Source: Thermodesulfobacteriota bacterium
GTDB lineage: Bacteria > Desulfobacterota_D > UBA1144
Assembly (NCBI GenBank): GCA_029246845.1
Contig: JAQWMJ010000006.1
Span: forward strand, 1-64,000
Length of the DNA: 64,000 nt
Reading direction: 5' to 3'
Positions 51,001-57,000 of this stretch are shown here, one piece after another. A program made the position numbers. Each line of letters begins with the position of its first letter. Position 1 is the stretch's first letter.

Positions 51001-54000
51001 GGAACAACTCTAGATGCACAGTCAAGCATACAAGATCAGCCTGAGAGGATTGGGCTAACGGAGTCAATGATGCCATTAAAGTTTCACAACTTACCTAATA
51101 AGTTCAACGGAAAAGAGGTTAAGTCTTTTGAAGATTTTAAAATAGATCAAGTTTATGAGGGAGATTTTGCGAAATCTATAAATCTAGTGGATTTTAGTTG
51201 GCTTCAAATTTCTACTCTCAACGATGCAAGCGTGCATCATACTCCTAAATCAAACTTTATAGGATATGGGGGCGCTATTAAATCTACGGTAGAGGGTGAG
51301 ATTAGCTCCCATCTTCCATACGCATACTTTTTAGGAATGAATTCAGGCTCACATGATGCCCCAACTTATCCAAGCGACATAATTCAATCAATGTTTGATT
51401 CAACGAATGAAGACGATGAAAAAATTCTGGGTTCGTTTAAAGTAATAAATAAGGATGCAATTCAGAATAGAGAAGACTTTGGAATCCTGACAATCCAACT
51501 TTGCGGAGATAAAATTGTAACTGAAGCAGGATTAAAAGCTTATAAGAAAACGGGGTTTAAAGGTGTAGCCAATATTATGGACAATAAGATAAGGGTTTTA
51601 ACTATGGAAATGATTGTTGCAGTTCCAACAAGGATGGCAATTGTTTGATGTCTAAAAAGAAATTTCCAATTAAAGATTTGAATTACCCTACTACATATAA
51701 ATGGAAGAATAAATTTGATTATGATTGGAATACGAAAAGTGACCAAAGAAACTGGACTCTTCCAAAAGTTCTTATAAATCAAGCCAATACGAATCCAAAT
51801 AAAGATTTTTTACAATTTAGCTATGACAAGCCTCTTACATTTTCTGAAGTTAATATTCAGGCTAACAAAATTGCGAACTCTTTAAATACATTAGGGATAA
51901 ATAAAACAGATAAAGTTTCTGTTTACATGCCTAATTCTCTTGAGATATGTCTAGCTTGGTTTGGAATTTTAAAAAATGGATCAGTTATGGTTCCAATTAA
52001 CACCGCATATGTGATGGATTTCCTTCAATATATAATCGAAAGCTCGGACTCTAAAATCATAATAATCGCAGAAGAGTATCTTGAGCGCTTAGCCAACATA
52101 GAAGATAGGGTTCCAAATATAGAGAAAGTGATTGTATGGACTAGAAGTGGCGAGAACAGCTTTAACAAATACGGTTATAGTAAAACCGAGTGTATATCTT
52201 GGAATGAATTTGTATCTAATGGCTCTGATAAAGAGCCTAAAGTTGAAATAACTCATATGGATCATGCCAGGCTCATGTATACCTCTGGTACTACGGGGAA
52301 ATCTAAAGGTGTTGTTAGACCGTGCGCAGCAGATTATTCATCTGCGCAAAACTACTCTTCCATTATGGATCTTGTAGAAAGTGATACGGTTTTCACTTGT
52401 TTGCCTCTTTTTCATTCTAATGCAATGGTAATGGGTGTGTATCCAGCAATGATCAGCGGCTGTAAAGTTGTAGTTGAGGAAAAATATTCTGCTAGTAAAT
52501 TTTGGAAATGGATGAAAGATTTTGGAATTACAAAATTTAATCTTGTTGGAGTAATGTCTTATTTTATGTGGAACGCCCCCATAGTTCCTGAAGAGAAAGA
52601 CCATAATGTTGAATTAGTTTTAGGTAGCCCAGCGCCTCATGATATTATTGAAGAATTTATGGAAAGATTTAACATACTTTTTACCGAAGGATACGGTCTA
52701 ACAGAAGTAGGGCAATGTACTTTTACAAGGCCAAATGAACCTTTTAGGGTTGGTTCTTGTGGAAAAGAATCCCCAGGCTACGAAATAAAGATTGTTGACC
52801 CTGACACTGATGAAGAACTTGAAAGAGATACTCCTGGGGAGCTTGTTCTAAGACCTAGGATTCCAAATATTTGTTTACACTATTATTACAAAATGCCCGA
52901 AAAGACTGTTTCAGATTTTAGAAATCTATGGTTCCACACTGGAGACTTATGTAGGATGGACAAGGATGGTTACATCTTCTTTATGGATAGGGTTAAAGAC
53001 TATATAAGAAGACGGGGTGAAAACATTAGCTCCTTTGAAGTAGAAAATCTAATATCTTCCCATCCAAGCATCGAAGAGTCTGCAGCTATAGCAGTTAAGC
53101 TAGACGAACAAGGGCGTCACTCTGAAGATGAACTGATGATAGTTATCGTTTTAAAAGAACATATGCAGCTTGATCCCACCGAACTAATAGAATTTTTAAA
53201 GCCTATAATGCCAAAATTTATGATTCCAAGATTTGTAAGATTCCGAGATTCTTTACCAAAGACGCCTACTAATAGGGTTCAAAAGGTTAAACTAAGAGAA
53301 GAAGGAATCACCAAAGATACTTGGGATTCCCTCAAAAAATAAACTTTATTTATCCCAAGGATGCTTCTTCTCGGGTTTTTGACTATATGGATTCTCTTTA
53401 TCTGGATGGAAATACTTAAAAGTATTAACATGTTGATCAGTATAAGAACCTGGAGGATAATATTTATCATAAAAATCCAAATCCATATTCTGAGCCTGGA
53501 AAACTAACCTCATATACATTGGGTCGACATAAGCTGGAAAAGATCCATAAGTGTCATGAATATAGTCAGCAACAGACTTAACAATCTCATTTGTTGTATC
53601 AGTAGGCCTTGGTGCTTTAACTAAGTGTTTGTCTGGCTCTTCATATGGAAAAGGTTTCTTGGAGTCCCAAGCGGCCCATTTATGTTCATCCATTTTATCA
53701 TATGCATCAGACATTGTTTTATAATATGGAGGGCAGTAGCCTTCAAAAATTCCATCTTTACCAACAGGTCTAGTCGGACCAGACTTTGGTTGTTCAAACC
53801 TAAAACCTAATCCTTTAAAAAGTTCAGGATTTGATCCTAGCGTGAACCTAGGTATGAGACCAGTAAATGTCCAACCACCTAACCCAAGAGCTTGAAGAGC
53901 TAGAGACATGTTCTGGCAAATAAATGCTTGTTCAACATTAAGACCAGTCAGTATTCTAACTTCAAGATCATATAATGACATTTTGACTTCTTCTTTTATT

Positions 54001-57000
54001 CTTCCAGAAGCAATCCATTTGTCTTGACCACATGAGCGATTATTTTTTTCATCCCAAATATTAAATGCATAAGTACTACTGCAATAAAGTGTCAATAAAT
54101 TTAAATACTCCTCAGTTATATCAGTAACAGGGATAAACGTTGTAGTACCAGCCTTGTTTGTATTCCATTGGTTAAAGTCAAAAAGACCAGGCATCTTGTC
54201 TGGCAAGTTGGCCCTACCGTCCTCAAGCTTAACAAGCCCTTCTCGATACAATTCTAACAACCTGTCAATTTTATCATTTACATTAAGTCTAAAAAAGACA
54301 TCAAGTTCTTTATCTTTAGGTAACATGTTTTTAACATCTACATAATAAAGACCGGAGTCATTAGTGAAAAAAAGCTCTGTACCGTGGTTATTACATGCAG
54401 AAGGCCATGTTCTGCCTGTCCATTGACATAATAAATCAATTCCATTCTCAGGTGGTAAATCTGCAAGGCATAGTCCGGTTAAACCGGTACCTGCCCAAAC
54501 CAACATAGCTTCTTGAAATTCAGTTAAAGGAACAGGGTCTATTTTTGACTTATACCCCAGAGAGCTATCTGAAGGGAGCTCCATTCCTAGACCAAACCTA
54601 CGAGACCTTCTATTAAAAATAGCTTCAAACAAAGGGTACTTTAAAGCAGCTTCGTAATTAACCTTTCCATTTCCCTTTCCATTTCCATTTTCATTTTTTT
54701 TTGTCATAGTTTTACCTCACTTTTGCAACTAAGTTTAGTATAAATTATATATATGAATTACAAAAAAGTAATTAGGTTAGAGCTTGTTTTTTAATTTCTT
54801 CTTTCTCAAGTTCTTTTATAGCTAACTTTACAGTAGATATACCCAAAGTAGAGCATTTTGGCCTGGAAAGTGCTAGTTCCTCACCAATAATATCAGTAAT
54901 AATCTCAGGTCCCATAGATAAAATCTCTTCTTTTGATTTCCCTATTACAACTTCGGAAATAATTGATGTTCCAGCTTGACTAACAATACAACCTTCACCT
55001 TCAAATTTAAAATCTGTAATCACATTATCTTCAAACTGAAGACAAACAGTCACTATATCGCCACAACCTGGGTTTCCACCATTTTGTTTAATATCACAAC
55101 GATGCTTACTTTTATCTTCATCACTAAGAGAACCCGAGTTTCTCGGATTCTCATAATGATCTAAAATAAAGTCCATTAGTTCTTGTTTATCTTTTGTCAA
55201 ACCAAACCTCTCTATTTCTCAATAGGCGCTTGAACAAGATTTCCCCATTCAGTCCAGGATCCATCATAGTTTTTAACACTATTGTATCCAAGGAGATAAG
55301 TAAGAACAAACCAAGTGTGAGAAGACCTCTCACCTATTCTGCAATAAGCAATAACATCGTCTTCTGGCTTTAAACCAGCACCGTTTTGATATATTTCAAG
55401 CAACTCGTCTGCAGATTTAAATGTTCCATCTTCATTTGCTGCAGTTGCCCAAGGGACACTTTTAGCGTTAGGAATATGTCCACCTCTAAGTGCACCTTCT
55501 TGAGGATATGCTTCCATGTGAAGCATCTCACCGCTAAATTCTTTAGGTGATCGAACGTCAATCAAGGCCCCCAAAGAAGCGCTATGTTCTTTAACCTCTT
55601 CCCTAAATGCTCTAATGCCAAGATTAACATCAGCAACTTTATAATTTGTATTTTCTAAAGAAGGGACATCTTTGGAAAGCGGCTTCTTCTCTTCAATCCA
55701 CTTTTGTCTTCCCCCGTTCATTATAATACATTTCTCATGGCCATAAATTTTGAATGTCCAAAATGCGTAGCATGCCCACCAGTTGCTCTTATCTCCATAA
55801 AAAACAATCGTATCTTCGGGTGAAATTCCCTTTGAAGAAAGCAGTTTTTCAAAATTATCTTTGTCTATGTAGTCTCTTATAAGATTATCTTGAAGCTCTG
55901 TCTCCCAGTCTATTTTTATTGCTCCTTCAATATGACCTATGTCATATAAAAGAATATCTTCGTTAGATTCAAGTATCTTAATTCCTGGTTTATCCTTATT
56001 CTCTAAGACCCAGTCAGTTGAAACTAACAATTCCGGATTTTTATATTCTGCCATTTTACTCCTCCATCTGGCCTTATTAATAAAGCCAGAATTAAATTAA
56101 ATTTTAAATTTATAACTAACCAATACTACTTGTAGTTACAACAACATAAGTTTGAAAAGTTACAACAACATGTATCTACTTCACTAACAAGCGATACAAA
56201 CAATGTTTTAACCATAACAAACTCCTAAACTTTTTGTAACTCAAAGAGGAAAGATACCGAACGGTATCTTCACCCTATTTAGCAATTATTTAATGTCGCT
56301 GCAATTAGAGTTAAATGACGACATATAGATTATAGCACTGAAATAAAATAAAAATCAATATTATATTTAAATAAGTAATTCATTAGGTTATTATTTTTAC
56401 ATGAGTGAAGTTGAAGAAAAAACAGTCGATCCTGAATCTAAGGATATTTCGGCGTCTAAAGAAGAGGCTGATGTTCAAGCGACTCCAGAAGAACTAGAGG
56501 AAGAAGTGCACGTAGTTCCACCTTACCCTGAAAGAGTTCCTAACGCTGAGAAAGGTGCCGATCACGCACACGCTTATGTGATGTTAAAAATATTGTTTCT
56601 CTTGGTAGTTTTTTCTTTAGTAATAGCAAAATTCACCTCACCTTTTTAGTTGACTAATATGCTTTTTTAAAAATTTTGCTGTTTCTGACTTTTTTGCAAA
56701 AGGAAAGTCTTTCTTCAAACCTTGAAAAGAAAGATGTCCTCCTGCTGAGCCACCATCGGGTCCAAGATCAATTATGTAATCAGAACCATTAATCACTTCC
56801 ATATTATGCTCAATAATTACTATAGTACTCCCCGAATCTCTAAGCTGATAGATAACCCCAAGAAGTTTATCAATATCTTCATAATGAAGACCTATGGTAG
56901 GTTCGTCTAAAATATAAAAGGTTTTTCCGGTATTTTTTTTAATTAACTCCTTCGAAAGCTTAATTCTTTGAGCTTCACCACCTGACAGAGTGGTTGCATC

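Follow-up and report, generated by a model that had tools for sequence, protein, structure and literature searches.

A predicted nitroreductase-fold protein at the end of a rhodanese-SufU operon in Dadabacteria and its possible part in a sulfur relay

What does a large protein without a named family do at the end of an operon for sulfur transfer? The question is raised by g00703, whose product we call NTRL (a working name coined here), in a window of 64,000 nucleotides from a Dadabacteria genome, G000, of 1.04 Mb and 91% completeness. The window is G000:C38:1-64000, so that window and contig numbering are the same and nothing is subtracted. Haem-copper oxidase genes occupy positions 14074-15435 of the same window. 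The initial annotation read g00703 as a lineage-specific flavoenzyme of sulfur assimilation under the control of SAM and cysteine.

The operon and its leader

The locus begins with a promoter-like site, followed by a SAM-II-like aptamer, a small ORF rich in Cys codons, the rhodanese gene, the SufU/IscU-like gene and, last, NTRL (Table 1). The three larger genes are separated by 11 and 64 nt.

Table 1. Features of the NTRL locus in window coordinates
Feature	Position	Strand	Basis
NTRL (g00703), 453 aa, paralogue group A	53346..54707	-	ORF; enlarged nitroreductase fold (predicted)
SufU/IscU-like sulfur acceptor or scaffold, 142 aa, Cys46/Asp48/Cys71/Cys116	54772..55200	-	NifU_N 81.6 bits
Two-domain rhodanese sulfurtransferase, 280 aa, active-site loop CRIGERS	55212..56054	-	PF00581
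29-codon small ORF, two runs of three Cys codons, AGGAG ahead	56126..56215	-	sequence reading
SAM-II-type (SAM_alpha, RF00521) riboswitch-like aptamer	56258..56332	-	35.1 bits, full model 1-79
Promoter-like site TTGATT-18 nt-TATAAT, upstream TG, directly before aptamer	56329..56358	-	consensus match

PF00581 matched the rhodanese in two stretches (110 bits), and its best NCBIfam model was 3-mercaptopyruvate sulfurtransferase, at 99 bits under a cut-off of 250. The SufU/IscU-like protein, encoded by the sole NifU_N gene of G000, scored 80.1 bits with the SufU model TIGR01994 (cut-off 92.5), and its three Cys and its Asp were invariant in 31 sequences. Metatranscriptome contigs from four libraries of four studies cover the operon genes, including one of 1193 nt over 55071-56263 and one of 1460 nt over 53217-54674. 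The SufU-NTRL junction was bridged by no contig of these four libraries. Both the gene and the operon that it ends are real, as had been annotated.

Of 15 consensus matches, the promoter-like site was the best, with agreement at 10 of 12 positions; it serves as a pointer only, such matches being at chance level in this region (13.1 in shuffles). The aptamer lies just under the gathering score of 36 bits (E 4e-6). The same element was in the same place in four of the five closest loci (32.8-35.8 bits) and was not found at E<=0.01 in five more distant loci. The small ORF was seen in the five closest loci only, as CCC...CCC in four of them (L011, L012, L013, L015) and as a variant, CC...CCC, in L014. 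The fold of the whole leader had a z of -6.07 against shuffles. As a general property, the proposed SAM/Cys control is not supported: both elements precede the operon here, but such a leader occurs in the closest relatives only.

A large unnamed family with a predicted nitroreductase fold

No Pfam or NCBIfam family matched NTRL at E<=10, and the one sequence match in the PDB was at chance level (E 1.7). At E<=1e-3 there were 688 homologues, the best 60 of them 67-92% identical; none of the best 120 had a Pfam domain or a name beyond 'hypothetical'. NTRL is present in 119 of 120 Dadabacteria genomes, and 535 stretches in genome_contigs encode a relative. Dadabacteria hold two to three paralogue groups, and the paralogue in G000 (C47:46848-48134) is 45% identical to NTRL. 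These results bear out the initial annotation as to the missing family, the homologues, the paralogue and the spread through the phylum. Its description of the family as lineage-specific had to be given up: a profile search yielded 1675 clusters at 50% identity, with members in genomes of Actinomycetota, Ktedonobacteraceae and other Chloroflexota. The family is large and unnamed.

The AF2 model of NTRL had a mean pLDDT of 78.2 and a pTM of 0.82, residues 77-92 and 94-107 being below pLDDT 50. With Foldseek, the top matches were 3hj9, 3hoi and 8cqs, at probabilities of 0.97-1.0 and E-values of 0.011-0.052; no match reached E<=0.001. When the model was compared with 48,161 chains by VIA-align, all 50 matches listed were nitroreductase-superfamily chains, many of them NADH oxidases or flavin reductases, with 8cqs_A (Z 11.8, rmsd 2.8, 162 residues aligned) and 3hj9_B (Z 11.7) at the top. 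At E<=10, a profile of 49 distant members matched 25 sequences in the PDB, and each of them is annotated as a nitroreductase-type or flavin oxidoreductase. The best was NfrA1 (E 5e-4), matched at the helix-strand QN..LA..GLGG, and sub-threshold matches to PF00881 fell on this site in 10 of 30 distant members. Since Foldseek, VIA-align and the distant-member profile agree, the nitroreductase fold predicted for g00703 is solid. Within the nitroreductase/FMN-oxidoreductase superfamily, NTRL has diverged strongly, its core of about 165 residues being enlarged by insertions and extensions that add about 280 more.

The PF00881 proteins BT_0217 (8cqs) and Reut_A1228 (3hj9) have this core fold in common with NTRL (Z 11.7-11.8; 162-168 residues aligned at an rmsd of 2.8-2.9), and the QN..LA..GLGG helix-strand is central in NTRL and the PF00881 superfamily alike. 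However, NTRL is more than twice their size (about 165 of its 453 residues align) and has no PF00881 match at E<=10. It is also set apart by a poorly modelled, clade-specific loop, W-T-G-R-T-W-P-x-x-C-x-x-H-x-T-E.

The residues R33, S35, R36, R37, W96, R99, W101, P102, C105, H108, T110 and E111 were invariant in an alignment of 37 sequences. The N-terminal motif R33-R34-S35-R36-R37, conserved across the NTRL alignments, is of the RxSxR kind that binds the FMN phosphate in nitroreductases. The two conserved blocks first described, R33 to R37 and W96 to E111, were thus found again, but Cys105 and His108 are clade-specific: they are invariant in groups A and B only, and the paralogue of G000 itself and most of 73 distant members have other residues in their place.

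Gene neighbourhoods and sulfur genes

Among the best 80 of the 535 loci, rhodanese, SufU and NTRL were colinear and adjacent in 40; this arrangement is found in the GTDB families f1, f4 and f8. In seven, the rhodanese and SufU genes lay upstream in the same orientation but apart from NTRL, one was without a whole ORF, and 32 had neither gene within the DNA covered (five of these with less than 2 kb upstream). Many loci do lack both neighbours, as the initial annotation said. In families f6 and f9, a rhodanese-SufE(-SufU) module is separate from NTRL. Other Dadabacteria families have a longer operon, rhodanese-SufE-SufU-NTRL-ferredoxin-reductase-like-NapH-like polyferredoxin. Of the 25 non-marine loci among the 40 colinear ones, at least 20 also had SufE, and at least 20 had the Pyr_redox_2 ferredoxin-reductase-like gene and the NapH-like gene directly downstream. 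These two genes, the proposed electron donors, were not found in marine genomes.

G000 keeps Rrf2-SufB-SufC-SufD without SufS, SufE or SufU beside it; among the marine-family genomes, SufBCD was checked in G000 only. Its best class-V aminotransferases are BhcA/AGXT-like, and desulfurase models scored at most 44 bits. Outside the marine family, 100 of 101 genomes had an Aminotran_5 match at E<=1e-45; within it, G000 apart, 2 of 18 had one, so that 17 of 19 marine-family genomes were without a strong class-V desulfurase match. Together with the longer operon of the relatives, this makes the sulfur link of g00703 stronger than was first read. NTRL is not simply a substitute for the desulfurase, because non-marine genomes with desulfurase-like genes (100 of 101) have it as well.

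Other neighbourhoods point elsewhere. Paralogue B lies at most 300 bp downstream of a same-strand Fur-family gene in 24 genomes (f4, f8, f9) and within 1-2 kb of one in six more. This regulator scored 133-144 bits with PerR models against 86-94 with Fur, without reaching the PerR cut-off of 180. The neighbours of four distant loci were scanned, one each from Actinomycetota and Ktedonobacteraceae and two from 'Deltaproteobacteria' MAGs. In all four, NTRL is followed in the same orientation, at a distance of no more than 3 kb, by the gene of a PF00881 protein (277-319 aa). These proteins are 58-85% identical among themselves, and in three of the four loci an AMP-binding ligase follows (two strong matches, one weak). 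CofD is encoded in two distant NTRL clusters and a CofH-like gene in one. The PerR-like neighbour of paralogue B and the nitroreductase/ligase context of the distant members suggest that the role of NTRL is not in sulfur metabolism only.

Possible functions and known systems

The reading that we tentatively prefer, with a probability of about 0.35, is that group A NTRL is the flavin redox partner of a sulfur relay that runs without a desulfurase. The active-site cysteine of the rhodanese would take sulfane sulfur from thiosulfate or 3-mercaptopyruvate and pass it to SufU, via SufE in the relatives that have SufE. The reduced flavin of NTRL, with the clade-specific Cys105/His108 loop, might then reduce or release the persulfide sulfur as sulfide, for cluster building on SufBCD and for cysteine synthesis. 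Soil and groundwater relatives could draw the electrons from the ferredoxin-reductase-like flavoprotein and the NapH-like membrane polyferredoxin that are encoded with NTRL. In the streamlined marine family, the three-gene operon would stand in place of SufS, and in the closest clade a shortage of SAM and Cys-tRNA would turn it on. What we infer here is the binding of flavin, the substrate, which way the electrons flow and each transfer step. Of the flavoenzyme of sulfur assimilation proposed at the outset, the gene, the operon, the fold, the phylum-wide occurrence and the sulfur link stand, while lineage specificity and a general SAM/Cys control do not. Against the relay are the restriction of invariant Cys105/His108 to groups A and B, the 32 loci without the sulfur genes, the separate module of f6 and f9, the occurrence of NTRL beside desulfurase-like genes in non-marine genomes, the PerR-like neighbour of paralogue B, the non-sulfur context of the distant members, the marine genomes without the two proposed donor genes, the leader confined to the closest clade and the SufU-NTRL junction without a bridging contig. 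If it is true, a tiny marine Dadabacteria genome has an undescribed way to feed sulfur to iron-sulfur cluster assembly.

NTRL might instead serve redox stress or maintenance in general, for instance as an NAD(P)H oxidase or as an enzyme that reduces quinones, peroxides or disulfides, and stand beside Suf-type genes only because both answer to oxidative stress. The regulator before paralogue B and the NADH oxidases and flavin reductases among the fold matches argue for this unlikely contender; however, the regulator misses the PerR cut-off, group A lies among sulfur and electron carriers in one direction in three families, and the closest clade is regulated by SAM/Cys elements and not by a stress regulator. 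The Fur-family neighbour of paralogue B and the frequency of flavin reductases in this fold would also suit a ferric or flavin reductase giving Fe(II) or reduced flavin to SufBCD without contact with sulfur; so would an operon that covers the sulfur side of cluster assembly and, in relatives, has electron carriers after NTRL. We regard this as quite improbable, since the regulator is more PerR- than Fur-like, nothing links NTRL to iron transport and flavin reduction does not need the conserved Cys/His loop. An opposite direction of the chemistry, in which NTRL oxidises sulfide from sulfate assimilation to protein-bound sulfane sulfur, much as a sulfide:quinone oxidoreductase would but in a different fold, and so supplies persulfide to rhodanese and SufU in place of a desulfurase, is distinctly unlikely. 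Sulfide would be available in G000, which encodes sulfate permease, CysN, CysH, CysI, CysK and CysM and has no recognisable persulfide source, and the NapH-like protein of the relatives, from a quinol dehydrogenase subunit family, suits the disposal of electrons. But a rhodanese would already give persulfide from thiosulfate or 3-mercaptopyruvate, the marine clade is without the NapH-like gene, and induction at low SAM and low Cys fits sulfur scavenging better.

The distant loci raise the possibility, an improbable one, that the family acts on an organic substrate, acyl-CoA or cofactor intermediate, with the canonical 280-aa nitroreductase and an AMP-forming ligase, the sulfur link in some Dadabacteria being secondary. 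That nitroreductase has two full-length relatives in G000, and one is present in 114 of 120 Dadabacteria; group C adjoins an AMP-binding gene in two of four other genomes examined; and a ligase encoded in the window is the best match in G000 to the distant ligase (144 bits; three others score no more than 86). Yet the two ligases are only 24-25% identical, the window ligase gene runs convergent with NTRL and is not co-transcribed with it, and in Dadabacteria the gene of the 280-aa nitroreductase does not adjoin NTRL. That NTRL depends on F420 or takes part in F420 biosynthesis, for instance as a stand-alone dehydro-F420-0 reductase, is very unlikely. CofH, CofG, CofE and CofD of G000 are all above curated cut-offs, CofE is in three of three distant NTRL-bearing genomes, the Cof genes noted above lie in distant clusters, and the C-terminal domain of FbiB is among the fold matches (Z 8.4). 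However, CofE was in 13 of 17 Chloroflexota genomes with NTRL and 116 of 184 without (a sample of 201), which is no clear enrichment, and three holders of full-length NTRL have no CofE. Azoline dehydrogenases of the SagB/McbC type (BmdC, ThcOx, McbC and SagB-like 3eo7; Z 9.2-10.1) are among the best fold matches. They too are enlarged nitroreductase folds, acting on cysteine-derived sulfur heterocycles, and the transcription unit of NTRL also holds the small ORF for 29 residues rich in Cys. That NTRL modifies this peptide in a RiPP system is nevertheless scarcely credible: no YcaO family matched at E<=0.01 in G000 (91% complete, and only 1.04 Mb), no NCBIfam model matched NTRL, the small ORF is confined to the five closest loci whereas NTRL is universal in the phylum, and the context is one of sulfur carriers rather than a RiPP/NRPS cluster.

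The leader resembles a known attenuator. A mycobacterial operon with the thiosulfate sulfurtransferase gene cysA2 is controlled by a polycysteine small ORF, Ms5788A; in both cases an ORF with consecutive Cys codons precedes an operon for a two-domain rhodanese-type thiosulfate sulfurtransferase (bioRxiv 10.1101/834739). Ms5788A is leaderless with eight consecutive Cys codons, whereas the small ORF here has a Shine-Dalgarno sequence and two three-Cys runs behind a SAM-II-type aptamer, and the downstream genes differ.

The relay that we prefer would share with the SufS-SufU and SufS-SufE relays to SufBCD a SufU-like protein, the SufE encoded with it in relatives, and SufBCD itself; the PLP desulfurase, which is missing from the operon, would be replaced by rhodanese and NTRL. 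In the ISC pathway, ferredoxin and ferredoxin reductase reduce the persulfide bound to IscU. The proteins differ from those of the NTRL operon, no homology is claimed and a protein of nitroreductase fold would accept the electrons here, but both systems would combine a persulfide carrier with a dedicated electron supply, which in the relatives of G000 might be the ferredoxin-reductase-like flavoprotein and the polyferredoxin.

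The NTRL family within the nitroreductase superfamily

The 453-aa protein g00703, for which we use the working name NTRL, is encoded by the last gene of an operon that also carries a rhodanese gene and a SufU/IscU-like gene. Its position and length in the initial annotation were reproduced (see the table), and the claim that it lacks a known family also held: Pfam and NCBIfam gave no match at E ≤ 10, and the sole match in a search of PDB sequences (E 1.7) was at chance level. We recovered the same 688 homologues, with 67-92% identity among the best 60; none of the 120 homologues listed had a Pfam domain, and each was named 'hypothetical'. 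Every name seen in the family was 'hypothetical protein', and we found no description of the family or of such an operon in the literature, as judged by titles and the starts of abstracts. The paralogue noted earlier was confirmed on another contig of the genome, with 45% identity.

An AF2 model of NTRL (pLDDT 78.2, pTM 0.82; residues 77-107 modelled poorly) had 3hj9, 3hoi and 8cqs on top in Foldseek (E 0.011-0.052), as before. When the model was compared with 48,161 chains by VIA-align, which is independent of Foldseek, all 50 rows listed belonged to the nitroreductase superfamily. The best matches were 8cqs_A (Z 11.8, rmsd 2.8, 162 residues) and 3hj9_B (Z 11.7), followed by the azoline oxidases BmdC, ThcOx and McbC and the SagB-like 3eo7 (Z 9.2-10.1). 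Both methods thus place the alpha+beta nitroreductase core fold in the model, and the core common to the superfamily covers only about 165 of the 453 residues.

The nitroreductase family PF00881 (gathering score 23.5 bits) did not match NTRL at E ≤ 10. Among 30 distant members of the family, ten had sub-threshold PF00881 matches of 13-19 bits at a central QN..LA..GLGG helix-strand. A profile of 49 distant members matched 25 PDB entries by sequence at E ≤ 10, every one of which has an annotation as a nitroreductase-type or flavin oxidoreductase, and NfrA1 came first (E 5e-4) at the same helix-strand; a profile of 37 close sequences gave nothing at E ≤ 10. From the VIA-align rows, the distant-member profile and the sub-threshold PF00881 matches, we conclude that NTRL does belong to the superfamily, though as a strongly derived member, and that it forms a very divergent, unnamed branch there.

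In the nitroreductase superfamily, an N-terminal motif of the RxSxR type binds the FMN phosphate, and such a motif is present in NTRL. Enzymes of this superfamily are homodimers that hold FMN where the two subunits meet. The reported RRSRR motif and W96...C105..H108.TE block were again invariant in an alignment of 37 close sequences, with R33, S35, R36 and R37 identical in all 37. When distant members were included (74 sequences), R34 was kept in 93% and R37 in 95%. Family-wide conserved positions are R33, R34, R37, G41, S54, G75, G78, R99, D117, R165, G187, P193, D219, N266, G275, G277, P326, P327 and P391; Cys105 and His108 lie outside this set.

The family had been called lineage-specific, which proved wrong. 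An NTRL profile run against 1.84 billion representatives matched 1675 clusters (at 50% identity) at E ≤ 1e-3, of which 807 reached E ≤ 1e-10 and 193 reached E ≤ 1e-30. Members occur in Actinomycetota, Ktedonobacteraceae, 'Deltaproteobacteria' MAGs and 17 of 201 sampled Chloroflexota genomes; the commonest taxa among Atlas look-alike clusters were Bacillota, Actinomycetota and Nitrososphaerota. Its presence throughout Dadabacteria stood, with members in 119 of 120 genomes of the phylum and in all 94 high-quality ones. There are usually two or three copies per genome, falling into three score groups, A (the window gene), B and C. The second copy of the source genome is a group C member that lacks Cys at the Cys105 position. 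In P0185, a metagenomic protein of 863 aa, an MpaB/Lcp-type oxygenase domain (PF09995, 95 bits) at the N-terminus is naturally fused to an NTRL domain, which hints that some family members are redox partners of oxygenases.

Operon, leader and gene neighbourhood

Features of the NTRL operon and other genes of the source genome (contig C38 unless another contig is named)
Feature	Position	Strand	Remarks
Promoter-like site	56358-56329	-	
Putative SAM-II-type aptamer	56332-56258	-	RF00521, 35.1 bits (gathering score 36), E 4e-6, full-length match
29-codon small ORF	56215-56126	-	AGGAG in front; two runs of three Cys codons
Two-domain rhodanese	56054-55212	-	PF00581, 110 bits, two stretches
SufU/IscU-like gene	55200-54772	-	NifU_N, 81.6 bits (cut-off 22)
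NTRL	54707-53346	-	453 aa
NTRL paralogue	C47:46848-48134		45% identity
82-aa ORF	56401-56649	+	between uvrA and the operon promoter
MaoC-like hydratase and acyl-CoA ligase	50506-53342	+	convergent to NTRL
Haem-copper oxidase genes	14074-15435		
PF00881 nitroreductase	C8:40339-41232		271-297 aa, C-terminal extension shared with the next
PF00881 nitroreductase	C38:100314-101129		271-297 aa; beyond the window end
CysM-type synthase and JAMM desampylase-like gene	C27:7001-8364		adjoining
cofD, cofE, cofG, cofH, then cysE	C47:96253-101033	-	gene row

The three genes are separated by 11 and 64 nt. The SufU-like protein combines a NifU_N domain with three Cys and one Asp (C46, D48, C71 and C116, invariant in 31 sequences); against the SufU equivalog TIGR01994 it scored 80.1 bits, under the cut-off of 92.5. 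Loops of the CRxGxR type are assigned to thiosulfate sulfurtransferases, and the active-site loop of the rhodanese reads CRIGERS; among NCBIfam models, however, the rhodanese scores best with that of the 3-mercaptopyruvate enzyme (99 bits, cut-off 250).

Compared with shuffled sequence, the leader has a much more stable fold (z -6.07). In its minimum-energy fold (56040-56335, minus strand), read by eye from the dot-bracket notation, a long helix appears to join the aptamer stem, by its 3' strand, to a distal region around the runs of Cys codons, and a tight hairpin lies just 5' of the rhodanese Shine-Dalgarno sequence. The aptamer and the Cys-codon ORF may be two coupled sensors in this predicted structure. 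The small ORF has its CCC...CCC pattern in four of the five closest loci (L011, L012, L013 and L015) and the variant CC...CCC in L014; the other two CCC matches among the 47 loci scanned were unrelated ORFs. A match to the aptamer model (32.8-35.8 bits) is at the same place in four of the five closest loci, and no Rfam riboswitch was found at E ≤ 0.01 in five more distant ones (L016, L019, L024, L033 and L045). Control of the operon by SAM and Cys, as the initial annotation had it, looks real because the predicted elements are conserved in position; since they occur only in the closest loci, it would be a recent feature of one clade and not of the operon at large.

Contigs from four metatranscriptome libraries (four studies) cover the operon genes, which records their presence in RNA libraries and is not proof of transcription. 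A 1193-nt contig starts in the leader, takes in the whole rhodanese gene and ends in SufU (55071-56263), and another of 1460 nt lies over NTRL (53217-54674); the SufU-NTRL gap (54707-54772) was bridged by none in the four runs. Nothing was covered beyond about 56348 in any run. Several contigs of one run end at 56322, near the predicted promoter, although contigs cannot show a transcript start. A terminator scan returned one internal site, at chance level.

Among the best 80 NTRL loci, rhodanese, SufU and NTRL were colinear and adjacent in 40; seven had rhodanese and SufU upstream but apart from NTRL, 32 had neither gene within the available DNA, and one had no complete ORF. Of the 40, fifteen are the three-gene form of the marine clade and the other 25 have a longer operon. 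In at least 20 of these 25, SufE lies between rhodanese and SufU, and in at least 20 the genes directly downstream of NTRL encode a Pyr_redox_2 protein of 424 aa and a NapH/MauN-type membrane polyferredoxin of 479 aa. Greedy ORF picking makes both counts minimum values. The Pyr_redox_2 protein resembles ferredoxin- and rubredoxin-NAD reductases and is without the N-terminal redox cysteine that CoA-disulfide reductases have. The source genome has no homologue of these two electron-carrier genes beyond one weak 25-bit match to the reductase.

By coordinates, the colinear arrangement occurs in three GTDB families of the phylum (f1, the marine family, f4 and f8), whereas in f6 and f9 a rhodanese-SufE(-SufU) module lies away from NTRL. 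The placement of NTRL between carriers of sulfur and carriers of electrons thus recurs without being universal, and genomes that are related do not count as independent observations. In f2 and f9, NTRL is found 4-7 kb from SufS/SufU with unrelated genes between, which looks like inherited synteny and was not counted.

Two other neighbours recur. The 82-aa ORF beyond the promoter, with an acidic N-terminus, a hydrophobic C-terminus and no Pfam family, is at the same place in 14 of 15 marine loci (36-142 bits), with weak matches (24-32 bits) in 16 others. The convergent pair of a double hot-dog MaoC-like hydratase and an AMP-forming acyl-CoA ligase, overlapping by 4 nt, adjoins NTRL in 14 of 15 marine loci (in the fifteenth, L024, the sequence ends after the ligase). 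L029, L032 and L100 have the pair too, and L031 has the ligase alone.

Sulfur genes of the marine family

The source genome (1.04 Mb, 33% G+C, 91% complete) has its best Aminotran_5 matches at 106 and 84 bits. Both proteins are BhcA/AGXT-like by NCBIfam (277 and 181 bits), and desulfurase models gave no more than 44 bits. At E ≤ 1e-45, Aminotran_5 was missing from 17 of 19 marine-family genomes including this one, being found in 2 of the 18 others versus 100 of 101 genomes in other families; these absences rest on MAGs, in which the absence of a gene is never certain. In both exceptional genomes SufS is paired with SufE; one of the pairs is at the end of a contig, and the other belongs to a 78%-complete genome.

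The source genome keeps Rrf2-SufB-SufC-SufD and has no SufE; its sole NifU_N gene is that of the NTRL operon. For sulfur assimilation it has a sulfate permease, CysN, CysH, CysI, CysK and CysM. No MetB, MetC or MetY type gene was recognised, since the Cys_Met_Meta_PP family had no match at E ≤ 1e-10. By this survey, the genome has no recognisable source of protein-bound sulfane sulfur other than the NTRL operon. The main text of a paper on marine Dadabacteria (PMC8115339) contains none of the words 'cysteine', 'iron-sulfur' and 'thiosulfate'.

The row of cof genes has all four members above NCBIfam cut-offs, so that the genome appears to make coenzyme F420. The cysteine-synthesis gene cysE rides with this operon.

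A proposed sulfur relay and its alternatives

We propose, with a probability of roughly one in three (0.35), that NTRL serves a rhodanese-(SufE)-SufU relay as its flavin redox partner, as predicted from gene context. NTRL would reduce carrier-bound sulfane sulfur or release it as sulfide, which would then feed SufBCD and cysteine synthesis. This reading agrees with the fold and with a place between carriers of sulfur and of electrons; it also agrees with the predicted induction when SAM and Cys are low and with the want of a recognisable desulfurase. The analysis shows the fold, the family, the architecture of the operon, the phyletic patterns and the leader elements; we infer the cofactor, substrate, direction of electron flow and partners from context. 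The reverse reaction, making persulfide from sulfide, is improbable to us; a ferric or flavin reductase is slightly more so.

The neighbours of group B suggest a general reductase linked to PerR. A Fur-family gene precedes group B on the same strand with a gap below 300 bp in at least 24 genomes of families f4, f8 and f9, and with a gap of 1-2 kb in at least six more; the gap is 3-7 kb in at least five genomes and the link is absent in at least five. The regulator scores best against PerR models, though below the PerR cut-off. In one such locus, L116, a PerR-like regulator (4789-5238) is followed by group B NTRL (5285-6586), and L102 and L104 have the same arrangement. We regard this role as unlikely for NTRL. 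Were it a stress reductase, the family would still merit a name, and the missing sulfur source would still be unsolved.

Distant members point elsewhere, to an enzyme of an organic substrate that works with a 280-aa nitroreductase and a ligase. In all four distant loci scanned, which were found with the single protein P0192 as query, a canonical nitroreductase of 277-319 aa lies no more than 3 kb downstream in the same orientation; an AMP-binding ligase comes next, strongly in two and weakly in one, and three have a CofD or CofH-like gene nearby. Two full-length relatives of this nitroreductase are encoded in the source genome, and at least one in 114 of 120 Dadabacteria. Relatives of these two follow NTRL in the distant Actinomycetota and Chloroflexota clusters, and such 271-297-aa proteins may be a partner subunit. 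The window ligase convergent with NTRL is the genome's best match to the distant-cluster ligase, but at only 24-25% identity we rejected orthology. The organic-substrate role is improbable to us, by a hair less so than the reverse reaction.

The cof genes of the source genome, and CofE in all three distant NTRL holders examined, raise the question of an F420-related enzyme. Among the 201 sampled Chloroflexota genomes, CofE was found in 13 of 17 with NTRL versus 116 of 184 without it (113 of 181 when the unpublished, CofE-positive genomes G160, G284 and G303 are left out). As there is no clear enrichment, F420 dependence is not supported, and we consider it very improbable. The similarity to azoline oxidases leaves a RiPP azoline oxidase a negligible chance. 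SagB/McbC-type azoline dehydrogenases work with a YcaO cyclodehydratase, whereas the 91%-complete genome has no PF02624 match at E ≤ 0.01, and the Cys-rich small ORF occurs in the closest loci only; we rejected this reading.

Cysteine desulfurases are regarded as the near-universal entry of sulfur into bacterial Fe-S clusters, and the accepted exceptions are, to our knowledge, sulfide-rich anaerobes such as methanogens. The marine family is free-living, with 1-Mb genomes from seawater metagenomes (by record titles), mostly without recognisable desulfurases. It is a tentative, rather doubtful proposal that these bacteria manage with no cysteine desulfurase at all and build all their Fe-S clusters, and perhaps thio-cofactors, by a putative new system in which rhodanese, SufU-like protein and NTRL mobilise sulfur for SufBCD, NTRL as an enlarged flavoenzyme taking the two-electron step between sulfane sulfur and sulfide. 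If the operon does supply sulfur, it would be a new route, and one branch of a large family that has no name would gain a function. Three small soluble proteins make the route open to direct test.

Mycobacteria have a CysO/Mec/CysM sulfur-carrier route, which the adjoining CysM-type synthase and desampylase-like gene of the source genome recall. Such a route would need a persulfide or sulfide donor here, in a genome with no recognisable desulfurase. The leader also has a mycobacterial precedent: a bioRxiv preprint (10.1101/834739) describes a polycysteine small ORF as the attenuator of an operon to which the thiosulfate sulfurtransferase gene cysA2 belongs.
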